Shown: positions 14,326-56,447, numbered from the stretch's first letter. The stretch is 64,000 bases of DNA from a virus (IMGVR_UViG_3300005614_000040:1-64000); one strand, 5' to 3'. The notes: generated from the letters alone by a model not told the origin. Numbers and translations: made by a program.

Positions 14326-14334
14326 AGAGGTAAC

Positions 14335-20709: not shown

Positions 20710-20742
20710 TTGTGCAACAATTCTTTTATTCCAGAGGACAAT

Positions 20743-20919: not shown

Positions 20920-21004
20920 TGCTGCTCTGCATCGCATTTGTACTTTGGTTCATCCTTACCTGCGCAATCTTGCTTTGGATGATCAAGAATCCACCGAGGG
21001 GATA

Positions 21005-31808: not shown

Positions 31809-31832
31809 AAAGCCCCCTTTCGGGGGCTTTTT
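31809..31832. terminator. bidirectional rho-independent terminator between convergent arms
   Basis: The sequence aaagccccc-tttc-gggggcttt forms a 9-bp GC stem. T-runs lie on both strands, and it overlaps the stop codon of the giant minus-strand gene. Confidence 0.6.
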
Positions 31833-38079: not shown

Positions 38080-38083
38080 TTAT

Positions 38084-41077: not shown

Positions 41078-41499
41078 AGGTCCGCCAGTTTCAAACGGTA
41101 TACAGGGTATTCGATCTTCTCGAAGATTTGTTCAGCAAATTTGTTGGTGTTGTCGTGGTCGCCGATGAAATATATTTCCCCGACTCCGGCAACAAACCCC
41201 AACGTGATGGCCGCCTGGATTAGTTCGCGCATGGCGTTTGCGATTTGCAAATTAGAAACCCCGGGCCGGAACGCCATGCTTTCGAGCACGTAAGGTCGAA
41301 TGGGTCGGGAGTCGATAACAGCCGGGCGCTGGATGGGAAGAAAGGCCAGTTGGCCGATGTTGTCGAACGCCACCAAAGTAAAGCTGTCAGGGGTTAGGGC
41401 GGCAGCGGGATCAAAATTGGGGTTGGCCCGCTGCCACTCCAGAAATAAAGCTGCGTCGTCAGGTACAGCCGGACGCACAAAGATATGGTTCTTAGTCAT
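41074..41499 (-). CDS. hypothetical protein (possible GNAT-like fold)
   Basis: The ORF is 141 aa. The GNAT idea is not supported by any recognised motif. Confidence 0.35.
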   Translation of the reverse strand: MTKNHIFVRPAVPDDAALFLEWQRANPNFDPAAALTPDSFTLVAFDNIGQLAFLPIQRPAVIDSRPIRPYVLESMAFRPGVSNLQIANAMRELIQAAITLGFVAGVGEIYFIGDHDNTNKFAEQIFEKIEYPVYRLKLADL

Positions 41500-41752
41500 T
41501 GTCCTTCTTTACTACCAGGAGAAGTTGTGTCCCCAAGTTCGTAAACCCCCGCTCAACGGCATCCTTCAGATCGTGGAGCGCGGCTTCAACGTGGGGTAGG
41601 TGGTTGGTGGCCATTGTCTGAATGGTCTCTTCTGTTTTCACGACGCGCTCCTCAAACTTCGCGACGTATCGCGAGGCGCGCCAAAAAAATAGAAGAAGAG
41701 TCGGCCAGCCGATGACAGCAATGTGGTCAGTCACGAAAGCAATTAAGTTCAC
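41492..41752 (-). CDS. small N-terminal transmembrane protein (holin-like candidate)
   Basis: A predicted transmembrane helix 'IAVIGWPTLLLFFW' is followed by a charged tail. Confidence 0.35.
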   Translation of the reverse strand: MNLIAFVTDHIAVIGWPTLLLFFWRASRYVAKFEERVVKTEETIQTMATNHLPHVEAALHDLKDAVERGFTNLGTQLLLVVKKDND

Positions 41753-41789: not shown

Positions 41790-42137
41790 TTATGGATTGA
41801 ACGGCACTATGCTACCGAGGTCTATCGGAAATCCAGAGGTCAACATCCAATACTGCGGAGTCAACCACACTTTCAGACCGTTTGCCCCGTAAGCTTCTAC
41901 CGTGTAGTAAGAGCTATTAGGGTTCAGCAGGTCAGATGTCCAGATAGATTGATTGGGCGCGGCGTTGCCGTTTTGGTCCAAAAAGATTTTGACTGACACC
42001 CCGCCAACGACCTGAGAGGCGGGCAAGGCCACGCTCTCGTCGTGCGAGAGTTGCAGCGTTAGCCAACCGTTGCTAAGCGGCTGGCCGATGGCATTTTGAA
42101 AGCCGCCGCCAAATACTTGAGTGAGAGTGTAGGCCAT
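41790..42137 (-). CDS. virion structural protein
   Basis: The ORF is 115 aa, Gly/Asn-rich and beta-like. Confidence 0.45.
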   Translation of the reverse strand: MAYTLTQVFGGGFQNAIGQPLSNGWLTLQLSHDESVALPASQVVGGVSVKIFLDQNGNAAPNQSIWTSDLLNPNSSYYTVEAYGANGLKVWLTPQYWMLTSGFPIDLGSIVPFNP

Positions 42138-42379
42138 TATTTGAAGGGGTTACCCAACTGGTTAAGGATCGGTACGCGAGTTTGAGGCACCCGACCGCCG
42201 TTGTAGTAGGAGCGCTGGCTGTCCGGCCCGGCGTTTCCGATCTGAGGAACCGCCGCACGTAGAAACGGATTGGGCGCGGCCGGATAAGTCTGCACGTACG
42301 GACTCGGCGGCTTGTCCATTCTTTGGACAGGTTCGAATTTCGCGAGGTTGTATCTGGTGGCTTCGGCAAGTGTTGGCAT
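42137..42379 (-). CDS. small hypothetical protein
   Basis: The ORF is 80 aa and is coupled to its neighbours. Confidence 0.35.
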   Translation of the reverse strand: MPTLAEATRYNLAKFEPVQRMDKPPSPYVQTYPAAPNPFLRAAVPQIGNAGPDSQRSYYNGGRVPQTRVPILNQLGNPFK

Positions 42380-45142
42380 TTAGCGTTCCTGGAGGAAGCC
42401 CCCAAATAACGTGCTCGACATAAGCTCGTTGGCTACGTTTTCTGCTTCCCACGAAATCTTCAACTGCAGGTGACGGCAAATTGCTGGCTGCTCGGTCTGC
42501 GAGAAATAGTGCCGATGCGAGTAGAGCGTCCGGCTTGCGACCAACTGAGGCGGGTCTGGGGTGAAGCGCGGCATCTCCTCGAACGGGCCGGAAATCTCGT
42601 CGATGCGAACACTCGGCATCAGAGGCTTACCCACCTTGATTGAATCGAAAGTGAAATACGCGAGTTCGGCCACTTGGCCCGGGTGGGCCAGAACCAAACT
42701 ACCGATGGTGAAATACGCCGGATAGACTTGTCCGTTATCGGTATTGGTGTTCCAATCCCGGAACAGGATCGGCCCGGTTCCCGATGGCCCAACCAACAGT
42801 TGGTGGACGCCAGGCGCGGTTTCGATAGAAGCCATCGCCTTTGCACCGCCCGCTACGGTAGCCTTCGGACTCCACGTCAACCCCGTCTCGGGTGAGGGGG
42901 TCGCGCACATGCGGAACCAATCGCCTTGACCATCCGAAACGAACAGTGCTTTATCGCGGGTTCCGCCAATGTACCAAGCGAGATAGCTGGTCTGCGGCGA
43001 CCACGGGGCCGACTGGAATTGGTCGCCAATCGGGAAGCCTACTTCAGAGAGACCGTTGTTTGGATCAAGAGAAACAATCTGGCCGTCCGTAGTAAAGAAG
43101 TAGATGACGCCGCCGTTTACGTCAAGGGCGTTGTAGCTTCCGAGACCTGTGCCTAGCGCGAAGGGCAGCGGCGTCAAAGGACTGCTGGTGGTCGCCAATC
43201 CATAGATGATGTAGATATCGGAGTTAGTGAAGACGAATAACCCGGTGCTCAAGGCGACCATCCGGTACACGGGTGCCGGGAACACAGCCACGTTCGCTGG
43301 CCTGAAACCAGTATTCCCGTTTCCGGTTGTGATATCGGGGCCGCTGCTCCAATATACGACGTTGGCCACCGAACCGAATATGCGGCCAAGGTGGTAAGTC
43401 AGGTTTACGAGGCCGTTGGGTGGTGGATCGCTTGATCCGTCTATCGGGGCTTCGATGAGGATGTTGAGCGCGCCCCCACCCATAACAGACGTGTCTGGAA
43501 TACCGGGATCGAGATATACCCAACTTACAACCGAGCCGTCAGCCGGGACCGCATCTTCAAAAAAGAGGGTTGCTCCGCCTTGCTGCGTCCGCCAAATCCA
43601 GATTTGATCTACCTGTGGGTCGGCGGACAACGGGCCGCCAAGCTGCACGAAATAACCTTGTGTGCCGATTGATCCGACACTTCCACCTGGGATCGTAATC
43701 TGCGGGGATGCTTCGGAGACAGTTCCATCTACTGCGTGGTAACTGAACGCATAACTTATGGTTGCGGTGGTTATAATGGTGCCCGGGCCGAGACACTTCC
43801 AGGTAACGCCGCTATCGGCCGTGTTGGTTCCTACTGTCGTGTTCCACACGGGAGGGGTCGCGCCAGTGGTTCCATTGTTGATCGCGTACTGCCAGTTACC
43901 GTTGCTGTCTAAAATGACGTTGACGGTAGCGCTGGTTCCCGACCCGAAAACAGTCGTCGCAAGCCACTCGCCCGGCGGCCCGACATTGAGCCAAGTTACA
44001 TCACCGTCGATGGTAGTGCCGCCGACTCCCGACCAAGTTGGATACACTCTTCCGCTGGCCTGCAGACTACCTGTGGTGTTGTATTCAACGTTTCCGTTGT
44101 TATCGAGAATACTGTAGTTAGTTGGAATTCCGCCGTACGGCTGCCAAAATCTCACAAAGTAAGAACCCACATAGGCCAGCGTTGGCGCGGCTGCAGGGGG
44201 CACTACACCCCAGTTTTCGACGGCAGTTCCGTAGCTTTTCCACTGCTGGCCGGAGTCCTGAGTAACCGTGAACTCGGTCGGTGTAAAAGTGGGTACGGTC
44301 GCGCCCGTGGTTCCACTTCCTGTGGTTGCCACGCCGTTATCGGCGACCAGGGGATGGTTCGACCCGGTGAAGTGGAACACACTAAAGGCACCGAGCGTCG
44401 TAGAGACAATCTGCGTAACAGGAACCGTCGTTCCGTTCAAAACTGCGGCATTGGTCAAACCGGAAAAGGTTACCTCAGCCCCGATTAAGTCGGTAAAATT
44501 CGCGGGAACGTCGGACGGATTCACGTATAGAGTAATGTGCGCGCCAAAAATCTGCGACGCCACAATCTGCATAGTGATCCCGCCAAGAGCCATGTAGACA
44601 ACTCCAGGCGCAGCACCTTGGTTGATTAAGGTTCCGGGCGTGATGGCGGTATTTGCGTCCCAGCTTCGTGGGGCCAGCCACTTCTTTTGGCTGACGCCGT
44701 CGCCCCAGTAGAGGGTGTTACCGACTGACTGCATGTAGCTCTGGCCCGCACCAGGAAGTTTCGACCAGATGAGGTTCTTCTGGTTGTTCGTTCCGTCGTA
44801 AAGACCGTCAGGCTGATCTACCAAAACCGAAATGACTTCGGACGCCAAAAAGCGACGGAACTCATAAAATATGTTAGGTGAGTCCCACTCTTTGTCGTTC
44901 CAGATTGAAAGCCCCGGCCTACGAATCAAGGTAAGCCGGGTGCTCACTTCGACGTTCAAACTCTCAGCAGTGAGTGCGTCGCCGCGCGGACCCAGATACA
45001 GTCCTTCGACCCGCGAGCCACCGTCGCCAAAAAAGCTGCGATTGGTGTAGAGACCCGTGAAGTAGCGTGCCGTCCAAAGGTCTGCATAGCGGGTCTGTTT
45101 GCCTGCGTTCGCGCCCGCGTGTTGAAATGCGTTCTGAGCCAT
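42380..45142 (-). CDS. large tail protein (920 aa; nozzle / tail tubular B-like or fiber)
   Basis: It is rich in Gly/Thr/Asn beta-type sequence and lies upstream of the internal-core genes. Confidence 0.6.
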   Translation of the reverse strand: MAQNAFQHAGANAGKQTRYADLWTARYFTGLYTNRSFFGDGGSRVEGLYLGPRGDALTAESLNVEVSTRLTLIRRPGLSIWNDKEWDSPNIFYEFRRFLASEVISVLVDQPDGLYDGTNNQKNLIWSKLPGAGQSYMQSVGNTLYWGDGVSQKKWLAPRSWDANTAITPGTLINQGAAPGVVYMALGGITMQIVASQIFGAHITLYVNPSDVPANFTDLIGAEVTFSGLTNAAVLNGTTVPVTQIVSTTLGAFSVFHFTGSNHPLVADNGVATTGSGTTGATVPTFTPTEFTVTQDSGQQWKSYGTAVENWGVVPPAAAPTLAYVGSYFVRFWQPYGGIPTNYSILDNNGNVEYNTTGSLQASGRVYPTWSGVGGTTIDGDVTWLNVGPPGEWLATTVFGSGTSATVNVILDSNGNWQYAINNGTTGATPPVWNTTVGTNTADSGVTWKCLGPGTIITTATISYAFSYHAVDGTVSEASPQITIPGGSVGSIGTQGYFVQLGGPLSADPQVDQIWIWRTQQGGATLFFEDAVPADGSVVSWVYLDPGIPDTSVMGGGALNILIEAPIDGSSDPPPNGLVNLTYHLGRIFGSVANVVYWSSGPDITTGNGNTGFRPANVAVFPAPVYRMVALSTGLFVFTNSDIYIIYGLATTSSPLTPLPFALGTGLGSYNALDVNGGVIYFFTTDGQIVSLDPNNGLSEVGFPIGDQFQSAPWSPQTSYLAWYIGGTRDKALFVSDGQGDWFRMCATPSPETGLTWSPKATVAGGAKAMASIETAPGVHQLLVGPSGTGPILFRDWNTNTDNGQVYPAYFTIGSLVLAHPGQVAELAYFTFDSIKVGKPLMPSVRIDEISGPFEEMPRFTPDPPQLVASRTLYSHRHYFSQTEQPAICRHLQLKISWEAENVANELMSSTLFGGFLQER

Positions 45143-46222
45143 TTAGTAGCCGAAAACTCCCTGAGAGTATGGGTTCGAAGGCCCGACTGCAAGACCAGGG
45201 TTGGCTTGAGCACCACCACCCATAATGCCTTCGGACGGATAAAAACAGAACGAATCTTGTTCGCGCTGCCCGGCCTTGAGCGCCGTCATAATTTGTTCTT
45301 CCCACTTGGCGTACTGCGCGTTGGCCTTGGGCGAGCCTGCGTGGTCGTAGCACATCGCCAACATTCCGGCACGGAACAGATACCCAAGCTCATCCGGGAT
45401 CGGAGATATCGTTTGCTGGAGGCTGACGAATTTCGGTGGCTTCATCTGATACCACGGAATTAGCAGCCAAGTGAGACCAGCTTGGGCGGGGAGCGGGTTG
45501 ACGCGGATAGCGTATCCGTTGGGGTCGGCCACTGTCCAAGTTACGCTACCATCCAGGATTGTTGAACCCGGAGGAGCGGCGGGCGGAAGGAACGGTTCGG
45601 TCGATCCTGTGGTGCCGTATGGACTGTTCGGCGGCAGGGTAATTGGAGTGTTGGTGAAGCCCGGGCTGTTGATGTTCAACCCCAGGATCGCGCTGTTGAT
45701 GTAGAGAATGTTATTGTTGGCGTCAACAAATTGTTGGAGCGGAGAGGAGGGTTGGGCCGCCACTCCATACCCACACCGTATTTGGGTGTTCGGAGACCAC
45801 TGGCCCATGTAAGCTTGCCAGTTCCTCAAAAAACAAACCTGCGCCGGGTTTGCCTGGACAGAGGTTCCTTGAAGATCGCGAACCACCTCCATGCTTACCA
45901 TCGGCTTGGGCGCGAGATTGCCGTTGTTCGTCGAGTTGTTGATGTCAACTCGATCTACCCACTGCAGCCAACCCAGGTCGGTTACCTCGGTCACGTAGTC
46001 TTGCTGCAAAGCCACGGTGATGAAAGGCGGAATCGTGGCTTCGTTCCACTTCCAGTCCATGCCTTGCGCGAGAATTTTTTGTGCAACATCGTTGGCGAAC
46101 GTGAGCGCAGGCTCCTGCGTGTACCCAGAGGTTCCGAGAACCGGAACGCACTCGGGGAACGTGCGGAGCCAGGTAACGATATTTTGCACCGTCAGAGTTG
46201 AAGTTGGAACGAGACTAGGCAT
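45143..46222 (-). CDS. tail/virion structural protein (359 aa)
   Basis: The start 'MPSLVPTS' overlaps the lysozyme stop (ATGCCTAG). Confidence 0.5.
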   Translation of the reverse strand: MPSLVPTSTLTVQNIVTWLRTFPECVPVLGTSGYTQEPALTFANDVAQKILAQGMDWKWNEATIPPFITVALQQDYVTEVTDLGWLQWVDRVDINNSTNNGNLAPKPMVSMEVVRDLQGTSVQANPAQVCFLRNWQAYMGQWSPNTQIRCGYGVAAQPSSPLQQFVDANNNILYINSAILGLNINSPGFTNTPITLPPNSPYGTTGSTEPFLPPAAPPGSTILDGSVTWTVADPNGYAIRVNPLPAQAGLTWLLIPWYQMKPPKFVSLQQTISPIPDELGYLFRAGMLAMCYDHAGSPKANAQYAKWEEQIMTALKAGQREQDSFCFYPSEGIMGGGAQANPGLAVGPSNPYSQGVFGY

Positions 46223-46682
46223 AGTGCTCCAAAAGTGTGGCCATCGAATGAGAACCTTGGCCGTAAGTGTTTCCTGGGAAGCTTGCCCAGATGTTTGAGC
46301 AGGCTTCGATAGCGCCTTGGACGTTTCCAGCCAACACCATGTCAACGGCTCTGCGTTCGTCCATTTGTTGGATAGCCACGGCGTCTTGGGACGCGGGAGA
46401 GAAATCGGACAGACCTAATTTGAGCTTGTACGGTTCCCACCAACGGTAGAGGATTTGATACCTTCCGGACGCCGTTGAAAAGGTCGGGGGGGTTTGGCGG
46501 AACTGTATCGGCCTGCGATGGTATTGGGGGGCGAAGGGGTGATCGTCGTAATCCAGCATCCGGTGTGGACCGTCAATACCGCTGACAATGATGTCGTAAC
46601 CCCGGTCTTTAGTGATCGGACTTGTGCTGGTTCCCTCAGACCATGCAACCAAATCCAGAAACGCAACGAGTTTGGGGTCCAT
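46215..46682 (-). CDS. endolysin, lambda R-type lytic transglycosylase (GH104)
   Basis: Across the ORF, 'FLDLVAWSEGTS...GYDI...GRYQ...DFSP.SQDAVA...CSNIWASFPG..YGQ' lines up with phage lambda R lysozyme. Confidence 0.85.
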   Translation of the reverse strand: MDPKLVAFLDLVAWSEGTSTSPITKDRGYDIIVSGIDGPHRMLDYDDHPFAPQYHRRPIQFRQTPPTFSTASGRYQILYRWWEPYKLKLGLSDFSPASQDAVAIQQMDERRAVDMVLAGNVQGAIEACSNIWASFPGNTYGQGSHSMATLLEHYA

Positions 46683-48964
46683 TATTGAATTACCACGGTG
46701 CCGCTGAACACCACACTGGGACCAATGGTAGCGCCGCCCGCCGGGGGGTTAATCGTGTACGCCGCCGATGTAATGCTACTGTTGGTGAAACTTGGGCAGC
46801 CTTGAACTTGGGCATACACTGTTTCCGAGCTTGAAACTGTCAAGGGGTTGGTGGCGCTTACGCCTGTCAGATTTCCACCTGACTGTGCGTTGGTAGTGTT
46901 CCATACCAAGTACGCAGTGCAAGCCGAAGTCGCGGTCGAGAGAGTAACCGACTGCGCGCCCGCATACGTTCCTGCGACCGGAGAGAATGTAGGAGAGGAC
47001 GCAACGGGCGTACCGCTTGGTTCGTACGCACCAATCGTCGGTGGGTTCGGCCGAGGTTCACCTGCGTAGTCTACGGTGATACCAGAGATCGCTACACCCG
47101 CGCCTACGACGGAACTCGCTCCGCTGGCCGGAATCATGTTGCCGTATCCGTAGGGGTGCCAAGTCATGTCCGTCAACTGCGGGCTGACGCAGAGCGCACT
47201 TGACTCGCTGGCATTAGGACACGTCCAACTTCCGCGATATCCAAAGTAAGAGTTGTTTGTCCAACTCGCGCCGGGGTTGGTCGTCAGCGCGCTAAAATCC
47301 CCTGTGGTGAAAATGGGTGTGGGGTTTTGCGAGTTATCGGGGTTCAGAAACCCAACAAATATGTTGTTGTTGTATTGCAGAACATTGGTCGTACCATGAT
47401 CGCCCGTCGCATACTCGAACTCAAAGCCGATGTTTCCTGCCGTAAAGATGGTGTTGTCCTGAAACTTGGTCGGCGTCCCAGGGGACGTGGTTACCAGCAC
47501 AGGCACATTCCCGGCCCGGCAAGCGTTCGCCAGATCGTCTTGGGTGGGCACTGGACGGCCAGGGATAACATTCTGCAGGACAGCATAGCAGTTACCAACG
47601 ATCAAATTGTTGCGAACCGTTGTACCTCCGCCTCCCGCTTTAAACTGCTGACCCTCGTTTCCGTAGGCGAGCGTTCGTGTGATGGTAATAGTTGAACCCG
47701 CACCCGCGATGTGGAGTCCATCCAACCCGTCCTGCATGTTGTAGCTGACGATACCTTGGTCGAAAATAACATTCCACGGGCTGAGACTGTCGATAGAAGC
47801 TGTGCCCCAACCGTCTCCGTAGCCCCCCGTGCCTTGATCGCGGCAACTGAAATAAGGAACCGAATCAACGATGGGGTATTCTTCTGCGCAGCCGTTCCAG
47901 CTAATTTCCCAATTAGTCCAGGTGGTGTTTCCGATACCTGCGATTCCGGAACCGTTATCGGCGTTCCAACCAGAGTCTTGGTTGCCGAGAAGGGCGATGT
48001 CTGTCGCGGTCAGGTCTCCACCCGGAGGGCCATTAATTCCGTCTGACGCAACACCGTGAATCCGAATATCAGTTAGGGTGATGTGTGCGGTAGCGTTAGT
48101 TATCGTGATGCCGTTCTTGGCGAAATCGGAGATGACATTGCCACCTCCGTCTTTGCAGGCGACGGCTCCGTTTTGTAGACCACACGCCGAAAAGTCTGTC
48201 AAATCAAGACAGGCCACGTCTACGTACGTTGAGCCGTTCAAGCCCAACACCTGCCCTACTCCCCAACCACCATGAAGCTGAGTTCTGGCGTTTTGCGCCG
48301 TACACGACCCGAAGTTGCCGCCGAGGATGCGCGTATGCGCGCCAGATGTTCCGGAAGGCGGCGGGGGCATACCACTGCTGAACTGGTCGTGATATAAACC
48401 CCAGCAATTAGCACCATCCATTGTTAAGCAGTTGACGCTGTTCGGCCACCCGAGCCGATAACTCACATTGTCGGCGATTGAACCACGGATGATGTATGTG
48501 TCTCCGCCCGTCCCGATCCACCCCCAATTAGGGAAAGTCGAACCACCGTCAGCATACGCGCCGTCTTGGTATAACATTCGTGCGTCGTTGAACGCGCAGT
48601 GCTGGTTCACTGGGTACGTCGATCCACTTACGGTGTAGACGGCAGTGCCCCCCGTGCCCGAGACGATACCGCTGGTCGGCCAGGTAATTGCGGTGCCGGA
48701 CGTACCGCCCGAGGTGACTGTCGCATAGTGACCGTTCGGAACATACACTGTCGTTCCCAAGGTCTCAGCCACCGAGGGCTGCCAGTACTCGCCCGCCGTG
48801 GCTCCGCTGGCCGCGACATAGGATACGTCTGCGGTGCCGTCGCATTGGCCGTTGGTAATGTTGGTTGAATTGCGAGTGCCGCCGTCCGGCCGTACGTACC
48901 AGGTCGAAGCGAACGCCCCCGCAGAACAAATCCAGAATGTGAATAGAGTTAGAAATTTTTTCAT
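46682..48964 (-). CDS. secreted right-handed parallel beta-helix protein (tailspike/depolymerase-like) with Sec signal peptide
   Basis: An N-terminal signal peptide 'MKKFLTLFTFWICSAGAFAS' is present. Beta-helix repeat signatures include 'VRNNLIVGNCYAV' and 'YNNNIFVGF'. Confidence 0.65.
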   Translation of the reverse strand: MKKFLTLFTFWICSAGAFASTWYVRPDGGTRNSTNITNGQCDGTADVSYVAASGATAGEYWQPSVAETLGTTVYVPNGHYATVTSGGTSGTAITWPTSGIVSGTGGTAVYTVSGSTYPVNQHCAFNDARMLYQDGAYADGGSTFPNWGWIGTGGDTYIIRGSIADNVSYRLGWPNSVNCLTMDGANCWGLYHDQFSSGMPPPPSGTSGAHTRILGGNFGSCTAQNARTQLHGGWGVGQVLGLNGSTYVDVACLDLTDFSACGLQNGAVACKDGGGNVISDFAKNGITITNATAHITLTDIRIHGVASDGINGPPGGDLTATDIALLGNQDSGWNADNGSGIAGIGNTTWTNWEISWNGCAEEYPIVDSVPYFSCRDQGTGGYGDGWGTASIDSLSPWNVIFDQGIVSYNMQDGLDGLHIAGAGSTITITRTLAYGNEGQQFKAGGGGTTVRNNLIVGNCYAVLQNVIPGRPVPTQDDLANACRAGNVPVLVTTSPGTPTKFQDNTIFTAGNIGFEFEYATGDHGTTNVLQYNNNIFVGFLNPDNSQNPTPIFTTGDFSALTTNPGASWTNNSYFGYRGSWTCPNASESSALCVSPQLTDMTWHPYGYGNMIPASGASSVVGAGVAISGITVDYAGEPRPNPPTIGAYEPSGTPVASSPTFSPVAGTYAGAQSVTLSTATSACTAYLVWNTTNAQSGGNLTGVSATNPLTVSSSETVYAQVQGCPSFTNSSITSAAYTINPPAGGATIGPSVVFSGTVVIQ

Positions 48965-49257
48965 TGCTTTTTCGCCTGGCAAGTTAGGGTGGTCAGGTCC
49001 GGCGTCCCGTCAGCTTTCAACTTCGCGGCGGTGCAGCTAAACAGATATGTCGCGGGAGGTGGAGGAGGGATCGTGTACGCCGGGATTGTTATGGTCTTGG
49101 ACGGGCAGGTCTGCTGGGGGATGGTAAGTTTGGTCGCACCTTTGGGGATAGACAAAGTGTACGAAGGCGACACGCAGCCCGGGATCGTAAGAGTGACCGA
49201 AGGAATCGTCTGCGCGCTGGCTGATGCGCTTAAGAGTATGAGAAGAAGGATTCGCAT
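48961..49257 (-). CDS. small secreted protein
   Basis: It has the signal peptide 'MRILLLILLSASASAQ' and four Cys. Confidence 0.45.
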   Translation of the reverse strand: MRILLLILLSASASAQTIPSVTLTIPGCVSPSYTLSIPKGATKLTIPQQTCPSKTITIPAYTIPPPPPATYLFSCTAAKLKADGTPDLTTLTCQAKKQ

Positions 49258-51197
49258 TAGTATGTAACCCAGTTGGTTCCATTGCACATTACCGGGGCTA
49301 CGACCGCGCCGCCGCTGGCGTAGTTAGCGAGATAAGTGGGGCCTGTGGCATCGCTTACCACAGTGCGCGCACCCTTCAAACCAGACGTACAGGAAGGAAG
49401 GGCAGTGCCAGCCGCCGAGTAGATAGTGTAGGGAATGGTTATGCCGGAAGTTGTTTGGTTCGGGCCAAGATTGTTATTACCCCCGGCGATGTAAATCGCC
49501 CAATCGGTCGATCCCGTCCCTTGATTAGCCGCGTAGAACGCCGCATTTAGTTGCCCAAGCCCGGCTTGAGTCTCGGCATAAAATCCAGCGTTGATGACCG
49601 CATTTGCGGTTATACCCCAGTTGGTATTATTGGCGGCATAAACTGACGCAAGGCGGGGAACCGTCCCGTCATCTGTGCCGCTGGTTTCAAAGGTTCCTAT
49701 CTGGGCTGATCCTAGAACGCCTGTAACAAATTCGGACACAGTATTTCCTGCCCCCGGCGTGGAAACGCCAACTCCGACCACACCTACGCTGGATGATGTT
49801 GTTGTTCCTGTGCCCGTGCCCGTGGTAAAAGAGGTTCCACTTATAGCCTGTGATCTTTGAATTGTGCTGGTGTTGGTAAATTCAGAGTACACTGAAAATG
49901 AGTTACTGCCAGCAGTGGCTCCATCGGACTTAGACACTAAAACACTATTGTCGTTTAGATTTATCAAATCTTGCATAGTCTGAGACAGTGTGCTTTCTTG
50001 TGGCCCGATATTTAGCGGTCCCACGACCGTATAGCCACCGGGAAGAGGGACTTGTGGAGTACCATCTAGAGCGAGTATGCCTGTAGAGGTGTTGTAGGTA
50101 AAATTAGCGTTGCCCGTGAAAACTCCACCTTGATTCGTCTGGACGCTCTTGTCGGGCGACCCAGGCAAGCCCCCGCAAATTGCGTTTGTCGCCGTGCAAA
50201 TCCGGGCGGCAGCGGCGTTGTTCTCAGATAACAATCCATTGCCTGTGGAATCTACCCCAAAGACACCGCTCCCGGCCGCAGGTACAATCGGTGTGGAATT
50301 ATAGGTCAACTTTATTTGGGACGCGCCGGGGGCGTTGATGGCAAGAGGATGAGTAAGAGTTGAAGTAGTGCCGTCGTCGCAGAAAGGAAGGCTGCTCGTG
50401 CTAGTCGTCACCGACGCGGCTTTCAGCGCGCAGTTGATCGTTTGTCCAGAAATACCACCCGAACACGAAAACACCCCGGCAATAACAGTGCAGGTTATGT
50501 TATCCGGCTTCAGTACGCCGAAGGTCGAGGTGGTGGCTTGAGGCAGGAAGTTAACCGGAATCGGGTTGCCCGCGTTGTAACTGGACGACCAGGATGTTCC
50601 CGTTGAATTACCAATACCCGCGCCAGGAAAACCCGCCGAAGACGCACTGATGGTGAGTGTGCTCCCAGAAGGAGTCAAGGTAACGTTCGACCCAGCGGCC
50701 AATGTCCAATAGGTAGGCGCGGCCGATGATCCACTAAAATTTGCCAAAAAAGTGTTGTTGGCTTGCGGCGTTAGAGTAAATGTGAGCGCCGGGGTGGACG
50801 TAGGGTTAGCGACGTTCGTAGTGAACAAAGGGCCGCCCGTGCCTGCGCTGAATGAAGTCACCGAACCGCTTCCGCCCCCGGTCCCGCCTCCCAGCGATAT
50901 CTGAAAAGACGCACCGTTCTGCTGCTCGACATAGGTTCCGGTTGCGGCGTAGTAACTGAAATAACCGTTGGCGTTCGCGTAGAAAGGGTAGCCGATTGGC
51001 TGCGTCAGCGCCGGGTCGGAAAAGATCGTGACCGGAACATTGCATTGCAGTTGGTCGTTGTACTCGCAAAGTGTTACCGGGGCGAACGGAATCGTCTTGA
51101 GGTAACCTGCAGCATTCTGTACGACGTAGCTCGACCGTTGCGGGTTCTGAGCGAACGCGCTGGCCGCAATGAAAATCAGCAGGAGGAGTTTCTTCAT
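49257..51197 (-). CDS. secreted Gly/Thr/Ser-rich fiber-like protein, paralog A
   Basis: It has the signal peptide 'MKKLLLLIFIAASAFAQNP'. The N-terminal ~190 aa are paralogous to 51197-52798. Confidence 0.6.
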   Translation of the reverse strand: MKKLLLLIFIAASAFAQNPQRSSYVVQNAAGYLKTIPFAPVTLCEYNDQLQCNVPVTIFSDPALTQPIGYPFYANANGYFSYYAATGTYVEQQNGASFQISLGGGTGGGSGSVTSFSAGTGGPLFTTNVANPTSTPALTFTLTPQANNTFLANFSGSSAAPTYWTLAAGSNVTLTPSGSTLTISASSAGFPGAGIGNSTGTSWSSSYNAGNPIPVNFLPQATTSTFGVLKPDNITCTVIAGVFSCSGGISGQTINCALKAASVTTSTSSLPFCDDGTTSTLTHPLAINAPGASQIKLTYNSTPIVPAAGSGVFGVDSTGNGLLSENNAAAARICTATNAICGGLPGSPDKSVQTNQGGVFTGNANFTYNTSTGILALDGTPQVPLPGGYTVVGPLNIGPQESTLSQTMQDLINLNDNSVLVSKSDGATAGSNSFSVYSEFTNTSTIQRSQAISGTSFTTGTGTGTTTSSSVGVVGVGVSTPGAGNTVSEFVTGVLGSAQIGTFETSGTDDGTVPRLASVYAANNTNWGITANAVINAGFYAETQAGLGQLNAAFYAANQGTGSTDWAIYIAGGNNNLGPNQTTSGITIPYTIYSAAGTALPSCTSGLKGARTVVSDATGPTYLANYASGGAVVAPVMCNGTNWVTY

Positions 51198-52798
51198 TAG
51201 ATAACCACGAGGTTGAACGTTCCAGCTACCAGGGTCACGGTGCCCACCCACGAGTTGCAAAACGCAACCGTTACCGTCGAGCCTGAAATTGTTGAAATTG
51301 TAGGAGCAAGTTCACCCGTTGTGCTCGACCCTTGGTCTACGCTCAGAACTACGACGTGCCCGGCAGGAACCGGGGCACTCATCGTAGCGCTCTGGGTGTA
51401 GCAGGTGTTCGATCCTACGCTTTGCGAAGAAATAACCAAGGTTCCTGTGATGGAGGTTGGCGCATAGCAAGGCACGCCCGTGCCGCTCAAGGTGCCGCTG
51501 GGGTCAGCTTGAACGCATTGAGTCCCCCCAGAGACCAGTGCGCTGTCCGTTACAGTCGGGACAGTTACCGGGCCGCTAAAACTAGACGTAAAGGTTGGAC
51601 CGCAGCCAATGGACTCTCTGACTGCCGCAGTGTTATCAGTTCCGTAGAAGTCGCAGTAGCCCGCCGCTACGTTTGCGTTCAAAATCGTTTGAGCGTAATA
51701 ACCATACTGGCTGGTGGAAGTAGATGGATCACCAGCTTCGGACGAATAGAACCCGTAGTAATGGGCCGCCGTGCCGCTGCTAGGACTCCCAGCGTAAAAA
51801 CCGTAGAGAGACCCCGCGCCTGTGTTGGCACCGCTCATCTGGCTCTCGAAGCTGATTCCGTTTTTTCCTGTGCGGGTTACGGAGGTGTTGACAAACATCG
51901 GAACAATACCCGTAGCGATTCCAGCGTAGGAACTATCGCTAACGTTTAAGTCGATTCCTCCGGTGGGGCCGTCTGCACCGTTGCTGTGCTCAACTAAGTG
52001 GTCTCCAGTCATCAGCCAGTAGTTATGGTTCGTGTCCGTATTGCCGTCCACCAATAAGTTCGCGCCTGTATCAAACTCCAGCGTGGCGTTGTCGTTGATA
52101 TCGATGGTTCCGAGGCCCCAAGACGGGTCGTTCACAACGAACCATGATTGGCCTGCGAACGTGTTGAGCGGGTCGTTATATTGGACGGAGTAACGAGGCG
52201 CGCCGGGAGTTCCACCCCCTGGTGCTGCACTGATCGTCAACGTGCTGCCGGAAGGCGTAAGGGTGATGTTTGACCCGGCCGCCAACGTCCAGTAAGAAGG
52301 CAGGCCGGACGACCCCGAAAAGTTAGCCAGGAAGGTGTTGTTGGCCGTTGAGCTAAGGTTAAAAGTCAACGCGGGTGTAGTCGTCGGGTTGGCAACGGAC
52401 GTGGTAAATAGAGGCGTTAGGTTGCCCGCACTGAAATTGGTCACGGTGCCAGTTCCGGCCGCCCCTCCGGTCAGTGTGATCTTGAAGTATGTGCAAGTGG
52501 ACGCCGGGACGCATTGCCGTTCGACGTAGGTTCCAGCTAACACGTAATAATAGAAATACCCATTGCCGTCCGCATAGTACGGATAGGCAATAGGTTGGGT
52601 GAGGGCGGGATCAGTAAAAATCGTCACCGGGGTGTTACATTGGAGTTGCGCATTGTACGTGCAAACTGTGATAACGGCGTGCGGAACAACCTTGGCGTAG
52701 TTCGCGTTGTTGACGATAGCGTAACTCGTGCGCTGCGGATTTTGGGCCGCAGCGACCGAGGCGAGAGCAAAGAACACAAATTGGATCAACTTTTTCAT
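51197..52798 (-). CDS. secreted Gly/Thr/Ser-rich fiber-like protein, paralog B
   Basis: It has the signal peptide 'MKKLIQFVFFALASVAAAQNP'. Shared N-terminal blocks include 'QLQCN.PVTIF.DPALTQPI.YP.YA..NGYF.YY...GTYVE'. Confidence 0.6.
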   Translation of the reverse strand: MKKLIQFVFFALASVAAAQNPQRTSYAIVNNANYAKVVPHAVITVCTYNAQLQCNTPVTIFTDPALTQPIAYPYYADGNGYFYYYVLAGTYVERQCVPASTCTYFKITLTGGAAGTGTVTNFSAGNLTPLFTTSVANPTTTPALTFNLSSTANNTFLANFSGSSGLPSYWTLAAGSNITLTPSGSTLTISAAPGGGTPGAPRYSVQYNDPLNTFAGQSWFVVNDPSWGLGTIDINDNATLEFDTGANLLVDGNTDTNHNYWLMTGDHLVEHSNGADGPTGGIDLNVSDSSYAGIATGIVPMFVNTSVTRTGKNGISFESQMSGANTGAGSLYGFYAGSPSSGTAAHYYGFYSSEAGDPSTSTSQYGYYAQTILNANVAAGYCDFYGTDNTAAVRESIGCGPTFTSSFSGPVTVPTVTDSALVSGGTQCVQADPSGTLSGTGVPCYAPTSITGTLVISSQSVGSNTCYTQSATMSAPVPAGHVVVLSVDQGSSTTGELAPTISTISGSTVTVAFCNSWVGTVTLVAGTFNLVVI

Positions 52799-54811
52799 TT
52801 ATTCGATGCTCGATGCTTCCCCGTCAGACTTGTTGGTGATGGTGCCTTGAGTGTTCGATTGATCGCTGGTGAGACCGCTCGGTTTGCCGTTTCCGTTTCC
52901 GGTAAGGGCTGCCGGGGTGCCGGGCTGGGTTGCGTACCCGGCTGGCCGCGTTCCAGTCTGATCTTGCGTTATTTGCCAAGGGTTCTGCGGTTGAAGCGGC
53001 GGCGAAGGAGGGGGAAGAGGAGTTGAGTTGACGAACTGATCGCCATCCAGGAGGTAAATCGCGCCCCACGGGGTAGCAAACAACAGCGCCGACCAAGTTT
53101 CGTTTTCGACAACGACCCCGACAAACTCGGAATCTTCCGCTATGCGGGGGGTTTGATAAAGCGCCCAAGGAGACGGAGCAAACCAAGGTTCTTCATCGAA
53201 GCCGAGGGCCGCAAAGTCGTTCTGTTCAAATTGGTCCTGACGGGGCCATGTGAACGACGCCGAGAGCGGTGGATAAGTCGCCCAGTAGTCTTCTAAAACA
53301 AAGGGTGCTACAAAATCTTCGTCAACAACACGGTAGCTGGCGTTAACTCCGAAGACCGTCGAGACGGGTTGCGGCCAATAGTCTTCGTCAACTATTGTCG
53401 CTACTGGCGCAGGAACAAATTCAGAATCGACGACCGCAAGGCTTACATTCTGCCCGAGGGCCGTGATTACAAACTGTGGCCAATAGTCTTCGTCCAATCG
53501 GGCGAAGACTTCGTCTTGGGTGAACCACGGTTGCGGAACAACGAACGCCGCGACCGGGATCGTTGGATTGATCCAAAAATCTTCGTCGATGAAGGCCGGG
53601 GCGTAGTCCGGATCAACGAACGATAGAACAAGCTGGCTGGCCGGAACCGGAGGTACGGGGTTTTGCCAGTATTCCTCGACCGGAACTCCGTAGAGGCTTC
53701 CGGCTGGAAGTTCTTCAGGGTCTCCGAGCGGAAGCCTCTGATATACCGAAGCTGCGACGGGCGCGGTTGGATTGGCCCAGAAGTCTTCGTCAAGACAGCG
53801 CGTCGCCTGTTCGTTCTGCTCGAACTGGAACGGCTGCGGCCAGAGCAGGGTCGCGGATACAGGGGCGACCGGATTAATCCAGTAGTCCTCGTCAGGCTGG
53901 CCGAACAGCGAACCCGCAGGAATTTCTTCTGGATCACCTAGCGGTAATCTCTGAAAGAAACTTGCAACTACCGGGGCTACCGGGTTCTGCCAGTAGTCCT
54001 CGTCAGGTGAAACGAACTTGACTAGACTCCCCGCCGGGTCGTCCTGGTGGCCGTTGGCGACCGTTTGGCCGATGGAGCCTGTAAGCAGCGCCGCAGCCAA
54101 TGTGGTAGCAACCGCAATCTGCGTACCAAAGCTACCACACACCCGTCCCCACCAACCGTCTTCATCCGGTGTGAAGGTTATGGCTGGCTTTAAAGCAAGA
54201 AGGAAGGCGGCGTTCGCACCCGCCGAACCTCCCTCGGTGTTCGAACTTACTCCTGTCGCTCCAGCGGTCGATTGCAGCCCATACGAAAGCTGTATAGCAA
54301 TGAAGCTGCCCGTAGAGTCGCTGGCAGCGTCAGCGAGAGTCCCTGACGGGTTTGTAGCTACCTTAGCCGCAGAGAGTGGCCCGGCAGATGCGGGCGCGCC
54401 AAAACCCGCGACTACCATGTTACCGTTGCTTACCGGGATGATAGACGTGGTTCCGGTGGTGCCAGAGGCGTTGGACCGAGCACTTACTGTGGTGTCAAGA
54501 ACAGTCGAATCGACACCAATGTATCCACCGATGACACCCTTACTGTGGGAAGTAAGACCCGTAAACGTCCAAGACGTGCCCGTCAACCCACCTTGGCCGA
54601 CTACCGCCGTGAAAACTTGGAGGCGACCACCGGAACTAGCGGTGCCACCTTGTCGCGTCCAACCAGTGGGGGCCGCGCTAGTTCCAGACGTAGCAAGGTC
54701 AGCAACCAAAGCAACGAGTACGTCGTTGGTGGCCGTGCCCGCAGGTTGTGCGAGCGTTACGCTCGTTGTTCCTGAAGCAACGGTCCCCGCCGCCCGAAAC
54801 GTGATCGCCAT
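52799..54811 (-). CDS. structural protein with tandem 'DEDYW-NP-PV' peptide repeats
   Basis: At least 10 degenerate repeats are read, e.g. 'PDEDYWQNPVAPVVAS', 'PDEDYWINPVAPVSAT', 'LDEDFWANPTAPVAAS', 'IDEDFWINPTIPVAAF'. The N-terminal domain is Thr/Gly-rich. Confidence 0.6.
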   Translation of the reverse strand: MAITFRAAGTVASGTTSVTLAQPAGTATNDVLVALVADLATSGTSAAPTGWTRQGGTASSGGRLQVFTAVVGQGGLTGTSWTFTGLTSHSKGVIGGYIGVDSTVLDTTVSARSNASGTTGTTSIIPVSNGNMVVAGFGAPASAGPLSAAKVATNPSGTLADAASDSTGSFIAIQLSYGLQSTAGATGVSSNTEGGSAGANAAFLLALKPAITFTPDEDGWWGRVCGSFGTQIAVATTLAAALLTGSIGQTVANGHQDDPAGSLVKFVSPDEDYWQNPVAPVVASFFQRLPLGDPEEIPAGSLFGQPDEDYWINPVAPVSATLLWPQPFQFEQNEQATRCLDEDFWANPTAPVAASVYQRLPLGDPEELPAGSLYGVPVEEYWQNPVPPVPASQLVLSFVDPDYAPAFIDEDFWINPTIPVAAFVVPQPWFTQDEVFARLDEDYWPQFVITALGQNVSLAVVDSEFVPAPVATIVDEDYWPQPVSTVFGVNASYRVVDEDFVAPFVLEDYWATYPPLSASFTWPRQDQFEQNDFAALGFDEEPWFAPSPWALYQTPRIAEDSEFVGVVVENETWSALLFATPWGAIYLLDGDQFVNSTPLPPPSPPLQPQNPWQITQDQTGTRPAGYATQPGTPAALTGNGNGKPSGLTSDQSNTQGTITNKSDGEASSIE
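53050..53990 (-). repeat. degenerate tandem DNA repeats encoding the DEDYW motif array
   Basis: Recurring 'ccagtagtcctcgtc' and 'ccaatagtcttcgtc' blocks are seen on the + strand. Confidence 0.5.
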
Positions 54812-55350: not shown

Positions 55351-55713
55351 TTACATCATTTTGGTTCGATTGAAGTCTGCTCTTTCTTTGCTTAGCTTCA
55401 CCAGCGCAGAGTTCTCATCCTTCAAAACTTCTACAATCTCCTCGGGGGTCAACTCGCGGCCGTAGGTGGCGAGTTGTTCTTCCCGAACTCTTTGCCAGAA
55501 AACCTCATCCGGAACCAACAGCGTGTCGGCCAAGGGTTGCCACTTCTCTGCACATGGAACGCAAAGATAAAACGCAAAGTTGCAATTCTCTTCAGGAACC
55601 ATTCCGCCATCGCTGCCGCAGTTGGCACAATAGATCGGCACCCAGTTGATGCCGTTGAGGTAGGTTATCCGCTTCTGGACTTTGGGACGGGAATCTGGAA
55701 GGATATTCTGCAT
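55351..55713 (-). CDS. Zn-ribbon protein
   Basis: It contains 'CANCGSDGG...CVPCAEKW'. Confidence 0.45.
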   Translation of the reverse strand: MQNILPDSRPKVQKRITYLNGINWVPIYCANCGSDGGMVPEENCNFAFYLCVPCAEKWQPLADTLLVPDEVFWQRVREEQLATYGRELTPEEIVEVLKDENSALVKLSKERADFNRTKMM

Positions 55714-56447
55714 TAAGCACCTACTCTACCCGCGCGTCCGATCTGGCCCATGTTAGCCGATCCTTGTTGATCCATCTGAGCAATAATGGTGTGCTGGAGG
55801 AAGAGGTTCTTCTGGGTCTCGGTCATTCCATCATTAGCCGCAACGACCTGGCGCAAAAACATCTGGAGAGCAAAAGGAAAACGCTCATCGCCAAGATACT
55901 CATACGCCCAAGCCCGCATACCCAGGTTGTAGAGATAGCTGAGATAGTCCGGAATAGGTGCCCAGGTATCTTGGGTCGAAGTGAAGGTAGGCGCGCTTCT
56001 CTGGCAAAGTACGTTGACCGTATACGCTTGATCGGGAGGAGGCGATAGCCGTAAAGTGATATTACCGTTGTTGTCGTCAACCACCGCGCTTATCTGAGTA
56101 GGCTGGTTGGGCGTAGTTTCAAACCCGATATCAGTTTTGACTTCGAGTTCCACGGCCCCGGTTACGGGTTGACCAACAACGTTGGGGAGGTTCAACACCG
56201 CGCGTTCGATCCAGCCAAAGTTGGGAATGTTCACCACGTAGTCCTGCTTGCCTGGGGCGCAAGTAATGACCGGAGAGATTGTGCCGCGATTCCAACGCCA
56301 CGCAAAAGGAGGCGACAAAATAAACTGACGCACCCAATCCGCCCCGGAGAACGCCGGATCACCCTCGTTAGTGAAGGTCAAAGGGGCGTTGCGGACGAAT
56401 CGTTGCGTCAGTCTGATCGTTCTCTCTAAGGTGTTGGTTGAGGCCAT
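55713..56447 (-). CDS. virion structural protein
   Basis: The ORF is 244 aa and is coupled to its neighbours. Confidence 0.5.
   Translation of the reverse strand: MASTNTLERTIRLTQRFVRNAPLTFTNEGDPAFSGADWVRQFILSPPFAWRWNRGTISPVITCAPGKQDYVVNIPNFGWIERAVLNLPNVVGQPVTGAVELEVKTDIGFETTPNQPTQISAVVDDNNGNITLRLSPPPDQAYTVNVLCQRSAPTFTSTQDTWAPIPDYLSYLYNLGMRAWAYEYLGDERFPFALQMFLRQVVAANDGMTETQKNLFLQHTIIAQMDQQGSANMGQIGRAGRVGA

Follow-up and report, generated by a model that had tools for sequence, protein, structure and literature searches.

Four consecutive genes of a podophage, situated in its tail-fibre slot, encode proteins with apparent Sec-type signal peptides (SPs), which raises the question of whether these proteins are secreted to act on the host envelope or are virion parts that leave the cytoplasm before they join the particle. 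We analyzed this locus within a window of 64,000 nt, the whole stretch of DNA under study, whose source is a soil phage, with Acidobacteria as the probable hosts. The phage is a podophage and distant kin of the Tunturiibacter phage Tunturi_3.

Gene layout of the fibre slot

The four genes, like all features located below, lie on the minus strand and are designated A (46682-48964, 760 aa), B (48961-49257, 98 aa), C (49257-51197, 646 aa) and D (51197-52798, 533 aa). Each of their ATG codons overlaps the stop codon of the preceding gene (TAATG or ATGA), and these overlaps are indicative of translational coupling, thus the start calls are well supported. Genes A-D occupy a hypervariable tail-fibre slot, which is flanked by the tail adaptor gene on one side and by the genes of the second adaptor and the nozzle on the other. 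The upstream border of this variable cassette is an SU10-type tail adaptor (55713-56447), which is 53% identical to the adaptor of the syntenic relative L002 and 37% identical to Tunturi_3 gp13. The downstream border is a second adaptor-like structural protein (45143-46210; 62% identity to the L002 counterpart and 33% to Tunturi_3 gp12), the start of which is probably at 46210 rather than at 46345, and beyond it lies a nozzle-like tail protein (42380-45142, 920 aa, 39-47% identity to Tunturi_3 gp19). A lysozyme/endolysin gene without an SP (46215-46682, 155 aa) is translationally coupled to A.

The sole large SP-less protein of the cassette is E (52799-54811, 670 aa, 2 Cys), in which an N-domain (aa 1-210) is fused to a DEDYW-repeat module. 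Two further ORFs without an SP are short (80 aa at 42137-42379 and 115 aa at 41790-42137) and match just aa 1-70 of gp20 and aa 3-110 of gp15, the N-terminal parts of two 'tail fiber' proteins of Tunturi_3. Of the classical fibres of the Tunturi_3 type, the window retains N-terminal stubs alone.

Signal peptides

The predicted SPs span aa 1-19 of A (MKKFLTLFTFWICSAGAFA, with the mature protein starting at STWYV), aa 1-15 of B (MRILLLILLSASASA, followed by QTIPS), aa 1-16 of C (MKKLLLLIFIAASAFA, followed by QNPQR) and aa 1-18 of D (MKKLIQFVFFALASVAAA, 52745-52798, with predicted cleavage before Q19 and also followed by QNPQR). All four possess a positive n-region, an uncharged hydrophobic h+c stretch of 13-16 residues, and small residues at positions -3 and -1. 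The h+c stretch is too short for a transmembrane anchor. In A-D, position +1 holds no lipobox Cys (it is S, Q, Q and Q), and the n-regions, being MKK or MR without RR, contain no twin arginine of the Tat type. A-D do not belong with Llp, Cor and Lom, the phage exclusion proteins and morons that are small lipoproteins or outer-membrane beta-barrels: a lipobox is absent, and A, C and D are fibre- or enzyme-like proteins of 533-760 aa.

Using a rule-based scorer with our own rules, we detected SPs among the 47 genes of the window only in A-D and in a fifth gene of the virion module (60012-60398, 128 aa, MKFLLLFLFLSLPAFS then QT, 1 Cys). The presence of at least four adjacent genes among 5 flagged out of 47 has a permutation p-value of 0.0012. 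Within the first 50 codons, A and C have no in-frame ATG, GTG or TTG after the start, the further in-frame start codons of D are all located inside the SP, and those of B (codons 29 and 35) lie ∼14-20 codons into the mature protein. The original prediction of four consecutive minus-strand genes with cleavable-type SPs was borne out by the coordinates, the coupled starts, the n/h/c pattern and the scorer. At the sequence level, the N-termini of A-D are confirmed as genuine Sec-type SPs, for which translocation and cleavage are predicted.

Head-binding domain and shaft module of C and D

The first ∼200 residues of C and D are 64% identical (E = 4e-76) and their C-terminal parts are unrelated, as had been anticipated for two paralogues with a common N-domain and divergent C-termini. 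In D, the SP is followed by an N-domain of the head-binding type (aa ∼19-110, 52469-52744), which is a beta-sandwich (pLDDT ∼95) with a Cys46-Cys54 pair, by a fibre shaft module (aa ∼112-195, 52214-52465) with the motif SFSAGNLTPLFTTSVANPTTTPALTF, and by a unique C-terminal part. The same N-domain (aa ∼17-105, 50883-51149, placed by alignment to D) and shaft module are present in C. The shaft module is common to hundreds of phage fibre and spike proteins, SP-bearing and SP-less alike.

The profile of the D family matches the 'Tail spike protein' of the cyanopodophage Pan3 (9vyg, E = 8e-6) and the 'Tailspike head-binding domain' of a second cyanopodophage, Pam1 (7eeq_A, E = 6e-4), with moderate E-values over a stretch of ∼45-50 residues. 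The same two chains are the best Foldseek matches of the D N-domain model (pLDDT 95; TMt 0.43-0.58). Residue ∼36 of D aligns with residue 19 of Pan3, thus the N-terminus of the Pan3 spike corresponds to the start of mature D. The characterized members examined (Pan3, Pam5) begin at the head-binding domain and have no SP, a pattern from which C and D depart. In the related phage A4 (compare the gp24 fibre; PMC12002296), domains of this kind are docked where adaptor and nozzle meet. Based on the head-binding homology, in both sequence and fold, and on their position in the fibre slot, C and D are most likely virion spikes or fibres. The same evidence speaks against the initial suggestion that the proteins of this run are secreted rather than being virion parts.

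A beta-helix protein related to exported EPS enzymes

The model of A (AF2, mean pLDDT 85) contains a right-handed beta-helix at aa ∼20-650, whereas the C-terminal ∼110 aa are of low confidence. Foldseek matches include PL9, PL6, GH136, RbmB, AlgG and tailspikes (TM 0.3-0.55), and at 10-14% identity no active site of A is assignable from them. A belongs to a large family of exported beta-helix proteins from Acidobacteriaceae, with homologues encoded in a Wzx/Wzy EPS cluster; its cellular relatives, which are exported proteins or lipoproteins, have the conserved Cys in common with it. The fold model, the lyases and hydrolases among the matches and the EPS-cluster homologues agree with the proposal of a ∼760-aa parallel beta-helix resembling polysaccharide lyases or hydrolases. 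We therefore describe A as a putative polysaccharide-active beta-helix captured from a host family of exported EPS-cluster enzymes.

Mature A begins with the family motif STWYVRPDGG, and its N-terminus is colinear with the cellular enzymes; no particle-binding or virion anchor domain is recognizable in A. The sole addition relative to the cellular homologues is an insertion of ∼65 aa (48599-48841) in the C41-C123 loop, which is 18 aa long in those homologues. This insertion, CBM5/12-like by eye, is common to P0059, P0068, P0094 (on phage contig L004), P0095, P0126 and P0148. For A alone, the reading as a secreted depolymerase is a plausible one.

Cysteine content

The mature proteins contain 16 (A), 4 (B), 10 (C) and 10 (D) Cys residues, those of C being arranged in close pairs, compared with 0-3 in the other virion proteins (2082, 595, 920 and 670 aa; MCP). 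In the D family, the median Cys content is 1.6% for SP-bearing and 0.48% for SP-less members, and the Cys count is even in 82% and 54% of them, respectively (MWU p = 1e-6 for SP-bearing versus SP-less); ORFs of the IMG/VR loci follow the same trend (p = 8e-8). Within the A family, 8 Cys positions are invariant and a further 4 nearly so. An oxidizing compartment is the only setting in which the association of SPs with abundant, even-numbered Cys is understandable, and the Cys pattern of A-D is supported, from sequence, as a signature of extracytoplasmic folding. The orphan protein B, which is Pro/Thr-rich with TIP repeats in its mature part, may be a periplasmic accessory protein or chaperone.

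Recurrence in related and cultured phages

SPs were flagged in 37 of the 53 class-1 N-domain homologues in the set scanned and in 53 of 78 module-bearing ORFs from IMG/VR contigs, where as many as six such genes follow one another. More than 100 divergent homologues keep the SP grammar (n/h/c regions, A-x-A and then Q) despite sequence drift. The corresponding slot of the relative L002 contains five SP genes in a row, and all its large genes are SP-bearing. A class-2 combination of SP and N-domain (Tunturi_2 gp12, L004, L006-L008) always lies on the downstream side of a gp11-type tail protein, as its immediate neighbour except in L006, and this domain, including that of Tunturi_2 gp12, also matches the Pan3 spike.

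Among the cultured phages, SPs were flagged in gp12, gp13, gp16 and gp17 of Tunturi_2, apparently also in gp14 (judged by eye, with an internal start), and in gp113 and gp114 of Tunturi_4. The SP-bearing genes of Tunturi_2 take up ∼13 kb immediately behind its head and adaptor genes, and the cassette lies three genes upstream of the endolysin. The label 'virion structural protein' in the Tunturi records is a Phold prediction, and the Tunturi isolation paper does not mention the SP trait. In Tunturi_3, the slot holds ordinary fibres, which are SP-less and Cys-poor, although the host strain of this phage is also that of Tunturi_1 and Tunturi_2. Therefore, the proposed export route would be a property of the phage lineage rather than of the host, and export is not obligatory. 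The fallback offered by the original prediction, a host with an unusual assembly route, comes closer to our conclusion as far as the unusual route is concerned, but misplaces it in the host.

Proposed route and alternative explanations

We propose, with a probability of about 0.5, that A-D form a host-surface-recognition cassette, the receptor-binding proteins of which are exported, disulfide-bonded, and dock after the envelope is breached. All four proteins would be made as Sec preproteins and exported by SecYEG; signal peptidase I would cut after A-x-A and leave Q or S at +1, by which D would acquire the N-terminus of a Pan3-type spike, and disulfides would form through periplasmic oxidation. 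Meanwhile, spikeless capsid-tail particles would be built in the cytoplasm. Once holin and the endolysin (46215-46682) breach the envelope, periplasmic trimers of C and D would dock on the tail via the head-binding domain. A would act on host EPS as a degrading enzyme, whether free or borne on the particle by an unspecified link. Export would, in addition, enable the spikes and the enzyme to remove receptors from an infected cell prior to lysis. To our knowledge, there is no precedent among tailed phages for receptor-binding proteins that join after lysis or in the periplasm, and joining at such a stage would seem inefficient.

It is rather unlikely, in our estimate, that A-D never enter the particle and instead constitute a non-virion secreted cassette acting on the infected cell's own envelope or EPS, with roles in receptor masking or destruction, superinfection exclusion, or progeny release from slime, the true receptor-binding protein being elsewhere, e.g. 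E or the nozzle. The SPs and the Cys signature point to export in this case as well, A is colinear with cellular exported enzymes and devoid of an anchor domain, and the cassette adjoins the endolysin gene, in line with the neighbourhood of the Tunturi_2 cassette. Small exported morons occur beside receptor-binding-protein genes (lambda Lom, T5 Llp). Inhibition zones without plaques, described on non-host strains in the Tunturi paper, are compatible with soluble enzymes. However, the head-binding domain of C and D has homologues in tailspikes that have been resolved on the tails of Pam1 and Pan3, and a constant N-domain with variable C-termini, in step with the type of the upstream tail protein, is a hallmark of virion fibres. 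The use of the fibre slot argues in the same direction: every large gene in the slot of L002 is SP-bearing, Tunturi_2 devotes its ∼13 kb after the head and adaptor genes to SP proteins, and classical fibres are reduced to stubs in the window.

Conventional cytoplasmic assembly, in which the SP-like N-termini would play no part in export during infection, would agree with the textbook view that all characterized tailed phages assemble in the cytoplasm. The phage might block Sec late, folding might outrun targeting, or the N-terminus might have another purpose or removal route. We regard this as improbable, given that the SP grammar is held across divergent homologues, that SPs correlate strongly with a high and even Cys content whereas the SP-less relatives are Cys-poor, and that the conserved Cys recur in the cellular relatives of A, which are exported proteins or lipoproteins. 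An artefact of mis-called starts or of chance hydrophobic N-termini is hardly credible in view of the coupled starts, the clustering of the flagged genes, and the retention of the SP in paralogues and hundreds of homologues, including GenBank-annotated CDS of cultured phages.

With respect to the exported-spike route, we tentatively suggest that widespread soil tailed phages (Tunturi_1, Tunturi_2, Tunturi_4 and the phages of many IMG/VR contigs) could finish virion assembly outside the cytoplasm, via exported, trimmed and disulfide-bonded spikes attached at envelope breach. If true, this route would let phages recruit exported surface enzymes of the host directly as spikes.

Comparison with known systems

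Late phage proteins that use Sec include the SP and SAR endolysins (fOg44 Lys44, P1 Lyz), the coat proteins of filamentous phages, and the morons lambda Lom, lambda Bor and T5 Llp. They set a precedent for the late use of host Sec, which A-D would share; however, they are lysis enzymes, small exclusion proteins and coats assembled at the membrane, and none of them serves a tailed virion as fibre or spike. The classical tailspike depolymerases (P22, Sf6, Det7, and the K1-5/SP6 spikes with adaptor proteins) have no SP, few Cys and an N-terminal particle-binding domain, and assemble in the cytoplasm. Points in common with the window are a podophage fibre slot that encodes a beta-helix enzyme and the modular swap of distal domains, whereas A differs in having no N-terminal particle-binding domain. 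The stubs at 41790-42379 are a possible parallel to the separate small anchor proteins of some classical spikes.

Among bacterial proteins, the cellular relatives of A are comparable to WceF of Pantoea stewartii, a tailspike-like stewartan glycanase whose gene is located in an EPS cluster (PMC7949094). Both are exported, EPS-cluster-encoded beta-helix proteins with a tailspike/lyase-like fold. The likeness lies in fold and genomic context, and the signals differ: WceF has a Tat signal, whereas the A family is Cys-rich with Sec or lipoprotein signals. The gene of A itself resides in a phage.

The Pam1 (PDB 7eeq) and Pan3 (9vyg/9vyh) spikes share with C and D the same domain at the extreme N-terminus of the mature protein, variable distal parts, and genes located between the adaptor and nozzle genes. 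The Pam5 tail fibre begins directly with a similar domain; the Pam5 proteins examined are Cys-poor. The chain of Pan3 can be aligned to mature D starting from its own first residue. The distinctive features of C and D are the cleavable Sec SP of 16-18 aa that precedes the head-binding domain and, relative to Pan3, an added Cys-x7-Cys loop formed by a 4-residue insertion.

Genomic context of the signal peptide cassette

A podophage virion module fills the minus-strand half of the window and includes a major head protein (61341-62330, -; phrog_1357), an SU10-type adaptor (55713-56447, -), a second adaptor-like protein (45143-46210, -) and a 920-aa nozzle-like protein (42380-45142, -), for which a phmmer search against PDB gave no useful match. 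Read as its longest ORF, 45143-46345, the second adaptor-like gene would overlap the lysozyme gene by 131 bases; homology to Tunturi_3 gp12 begins at 46210 (MPSLV...), probably the true start. No nucleotide match to the window was found in INPHARED. Judged by protein identities (40% for the head protein, 33-37% for the adaptors and 39-47% for the nozzle), the phage is a distant relative of Tunturi_3 (PP885686), a cultured podophage of Tunturiibacter (Acidobacteriaceae).

The adaptor-nozzle stretch of Tunturi_3 encodes ordinary tail fibers (gp15, gp18). In the window, the stretch from the adaptor to the second adaptor/nozzle pair contains g120, g162, E (52799-54811, -; 670 aa), D (51197-52798, -), C (49257-51197, -), B (48961-49257, -), A (46682-48964, -) and the lysozyme gene. 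Two short ORFs, of 115 aa (41790-42137, -) and 80 aa (42137-42379, -), have only N-terminal matches to Tunturi_3 'tail fiber' proteins, to gp15 aa 3-110 (E = 1e-15) and gp20 aa 1-70 (E = 7e-7), respectively. They look as if classical fibers had been cut down to tail-proximal stubs, which may serve as anchor or adaptor proteins. Downstream of the tail genes, a 2082-aa and a 595-aa protein (31831-39871, -), probably internal or ejection proteins, lack any cysteine in 2,677 residues and any family match, the latter being weakly similar to Tunturi_3 gp24 ('lytic tail fiber protein'). The virion module also contains a histidine phosphatase superfamily gene (58472-59125, -; His_Phos_1, E = 2e-27). 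A holin candidate is an 86-aa ORF (41492-41752, -) with an N-terminal hydrophobic segment (MNLIAFVTDHIAVIGWPTLLLFFW), located ~4.5 kb from the endolysin gene.

Signal peptides and cysteine content

The original prediction of four consecutive minus-strand genes with signal peptide N-termini was borne out for A-D by a rule-based scorer, which was written for this analysis and applied to the 47 genes of the window. The scorer flagged A-D and 60012-60398 and no others; four adjacent genes among five flagged of 47 correspond to p = 0.0012. The predicted Sec-type signal peptides (SPs), with cleavage at the slash, are MKKFLTLFTFWICSAGAFA/STWYV in A, MRILLLILLSASASA/QTIPS in B, MKKLLLLIFIAASAFA/QNPQR in C and MKKLIQFVFFALASVAAA/QNPQR in D. 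Each has a positive n-region, followed by 13-16 uncharged hydrophobic residues, a stretch too short for a membrane anchor, and small residues at -3 and -1; neither a lipobox nor a twin arginine is present in these N-termini. The genes are translationally coupled, each ATG overlapping the stop codon before it (TAATG or ATGA). A and C lack any further in-frame ATG, GTG or TTG in the first 50 codons, and D has such codons only within the SP; in B they occur only at codons 29 and 35, inside the mature protein.

The residue after the predicted cleavage site in B, C, D and most homologs is very often Gln (A/Q or G/Q). This pattern recalls the 'Q-rule' of Bacteroidetes, which concerns pyroglutamate N-termini, and suggests that members of the SP-bearing fiber family are carried both by phages of Acidobacteriota and by those of Bacteroidota-like hosts. 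The fifth flagged gene (60012-60398, -), between the head genes and the histidine phosphatase, encodes a 128-aa protein (MKFLLLFLFLSLPAFS/QTAKVI) with one cysteine and no homolog among the loci compared.

The mature proteins A, B, C and D contain 16, 4, 10 and 10 cysteines, mostly in close pairs, and in the A family eight cysteines are invariant and four nearly so. The counts in other virion proteins are 0 (2082-aa and 595-aa proteins), 3 (920-aa protein), 2 (670-aa protein) and 1 (head protein). SP-bearing members of the D family (n = 113) have a median of 1.6% cysteine and an even count in the mature part in 82% of cases, versus 0.48% and 54% in SP-less members (n = 69; Mann-Whitney p = 1e-6). 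Among ORFs of at least 250 aa in 80 IMG/VR loci, the count is even in 81% of SP-bearing and 60% of SP-less proteins (p = 8e-8). A high, even and conserved cysteine content together with an SP is a signature of disulfide-bonded extracytoplasmic proteins, which provides indirect but consistent evidence that the signals of A-D are used for export.

Proteins C and D

An N-terminal domain common to two of the proteins, also anticipated, was found in C and D, whose first ~200 residues are 64% identical (E = 4e-76). C and D have no Pfam, PHROGs or NCBIfam match, and D has no protein match in INPHARED. An exhaustive search identified 1,063 relatives, dozens of which have the SP, the N-domain and a shaft module in common and carry unrelated C-termini of 100-1,500 residues. 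No relative and no prophage copies were seen in a search of species-representative genome contigs with this N-domain.

The D N-domain is modeled as a beta-sandwich (pLDDT ~95; <50 for the C-terminal 330 aa), and is structurally most similar to chains of the tail complex of cyanopodophage Pan3 and the tail machine of cyanopodophage Pam1. The D-family sequence profile matches, in short alignments, the Pan3 'Tail spike protein' (E = 8e-6) and the Pam1 'Tailspike head-binding domain' (E = 6e-4). D residue ~36 is aligned with Pan3 residue 19, so that the predicted mature D and the Pan3 spike start at corresponding positions, and the signal peptide is an add-on. Compared with the Pan3 spike, D has an added Cys-x7-Cys loop, a 4-residue insertion. 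The Pam5 tail fiber, which is Cys-poor, begins directly with a similar-looking domain (by eye; BLAST E = 0.18). Each fiber of the related cyanopodophage A4 docks at the adaptor-nozzle junction through three such domains (PMC12002296). The shaft module (SFSAGNLSPLFTTSVANPTTTPALSF) is also found in SP-less fibers, one with a T7 tail-fiber N-domain and one with Peptidase_S74 (PF13884), and in the Pam5 tail spike. By homology, C and D are classified as tailspike- or fiber-type virion proteins.

Protein A

The expected parallel beta-helix is A, with a right-handed helix in the AlphaFold model (pLDDT 85); Pfam, PHROGs and NCBIfam give only a sub-threshold Beta_helix match. Weak but consistent structural neighbors are PL9 and PL6 lyases, GH136, RbmB (the Vibrio VPS lyase), AlgG, a K1 capsule lyase and phage tailspikes. 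Most of the more than 1,100 homologs at 50-69% identity come from Acidobacteriaceae (Edaphobacter and relatives), have Sec or lipoprotein signals and begin, once mature, with the TWYVRPDGGTRYS..GQCDG of A; fusion to Ig-like domains is seen in many. The family, a large group of exported beta-helix proteins in acidobacteria, appears to be uncharacterized; the nearest characterized analog is Pantoea stewartii WceF, a tailspike-like glycanase that is exported and belongs to the stewartan cluster (PMC7949094). In Edaphobacter acidisoli (BMJB01000002.1, 6975-11899), a Wzx/Wzy-type EPS cluster contains two tandem copies alongside UDP-glucose dehydrogenase, epimerase, glycosyltransferases, Wzy_C, flippase and deacetylase; one of these copies is fused to He_PIG/PKD Ig-like domains. 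Based on its homolog family, the EPS-cluster setting and the fold, A looks like a host exported enzyme, predicted to modify EPS, that was captured by the phage.

The main difference between A and its cellular homologs lies in the first disulfide loop, where A has an insertion of ~65 residues that also occurs in six aligned homologs, one of them on a phage-like contig (L004). The insertion was considered as a virion-docking domain and rejected, as by eye it resembles a sugar-binding CBM5/12 module. A has no recognizable particle-binding domain.

Proteins B and E

B is a 98-aa orphan with an SP, TIP repeats and four cysteines, and no Pfam, PHROGs or NCBIfam match. Small SP-bearing proteins also precede A-like genes in a syntenic relative of the window phage (L002; 121 aa) and in Tunturi_2 (gp16), with no detectable homology among the three; a periplasmic accessory or chaperone role for B is only a guess. 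E, which has no SP, no Pfam family and 170 homologs, is a fusion of two modules that stand apart in other phage-size contigs: an N-domain (aa 1-210, MAITFRAAGT...) and acidic repeats with at least seven copies of DEDYW/DEDFW, followed by NPxxPV. Itself SP-less, E could act as a hub for exported spikes or as their partner. A membrane-spanning bridge was rejected for E, as its hydrophobicity peaks at only 1.54 over 19 residues and no TM segment is present.

Recurrence in other phages

L002, whose adaptor and second adaptor are 53% and 62% identical to those of the window, has between the same two bordering genes one for a 97-aa membrane protein and an unbroken run of five whose products are SP-bearing and Cys-rich (401, 1085, 791, 121 and 1008 aa). 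SP-bearing fiber or spike genes also occur within the virion modules of a P22-like prophage (L003) and of L004. In IMG/VR, at least 53 of 78 untruncated module-bearing ORFs start with an SP, and the module-bearing loci commonly have several SP genes in a row, up to six.

Among the cultured Tunturiibacter phages, whose annotations are Phold predictions, the podovirus Tunturi_2 has flagged SPs in gp12, gp13 ('tail fiber'), gp16 and gp17 ('virion structural protein') and, by eye only, an apparent SP from an internal start in gp14 ('pectin lyase'); gp12, gp13, gp14 and gp17 are Cys-rich. The group follows the head genes and the tail protein gp11. The gp12-type N-domain, which forms a second class and is found also in L004 and three further loci (L006-L008), always lies downstream of a gp11-type gene, directly adjoins it except in L006, and likewise matches the Pan3 spike. 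The siphovirus Tunturi_4 has SPs in gp113 and in gp114, an A-family member. The paper on the isolation of these phages never mentions signal peptides and reports no proteomics.

Tunturi_1, Tunturi_2 and Tunturi_3 share one isolation strain, T. psychrotolerans X5P2. The spikes of Tunturi_1 and Tunturi_2 are SP-bearing and Cys-rich, unlike the Tunturi_3 fibers (13298-22304), all of which are SP-less and Cys-poor; the phages thus form a natural control pair. Therefore, the trait belongs to phage lineages and not to the host. An unusual assembly route, earlier offered as an alternative and ascribed to the host, would instead be a property of phage lineages.

Proposed mechanism and alternatives

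In the best-supported model, to which we assign a probability of about 0.5, the cassette products form the receptor-binding set of the phage and would be made as Sec preproteins, exported, cut by signal peptidase I and oxidized in the periplasm. Once the inner membrane and wall have been opened by holin and endolysin, trimers of C and D would dock on spikeless particles via their head-binding domains, and A would degrade host EPS, either free or particle-borne. Export could give the phage access to disulfide-stabilized host surface domains and permit stripping of receptors from the infected cell.

The original prediction preferred secreted or periplasmic depolymerases and adhesins over virion parts. 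Such purely secreted proteins, never joining the virion, would suit A well, whereas the head-binding domain of C and D and their place in the fiber gene slot argue against this reading, which we regard as possible for the set as a whole at clearly lower odds. It is unlikely that the signals are idle and assembly is cytoplasmic, as this is contradicted by the link between SPs and cysteine content and by the conserved SP grammar. That the whole pattern is an artefact seems extremely improbable.

If the spikes are exported, they would be a sizeable exception to the cytoplasmic completion of tailed-phage virions. This would explain how phages reuse disulfide-dependent host surface enzymes as depolymerases and would provide built-in receptor destruction on the infected cell. 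It would also change how receptor-binding proteins are recognized in soil viromes, where signal peptide filters would discard them, and 'viral CAZyme AMGs' of the kind of A may in fact encode spikes or depolymerases; to express such proteins for biotechnology, folding in the periplasm may be required. Cultures suited to a direct test exist: Tunturi_1, Tunturi_2 and Tunturi_4 have the trait, and Tunturi_3, from the Tunturi_1/2 strain, lacks it.

In literature searches, we found no paper on signal peptides of tail fibers or spikes, nor any description of the present combination with the extracytoplasmic maturation of virion receptor-binding proteins that it implies. The components are of known kinds, namely tailspikes and fibers with head-binding domains, beta-helix depolymerases and Sec signals, and there is a substantial chance that their union in an SP-bearing spike cassette reflects a new assembly route.
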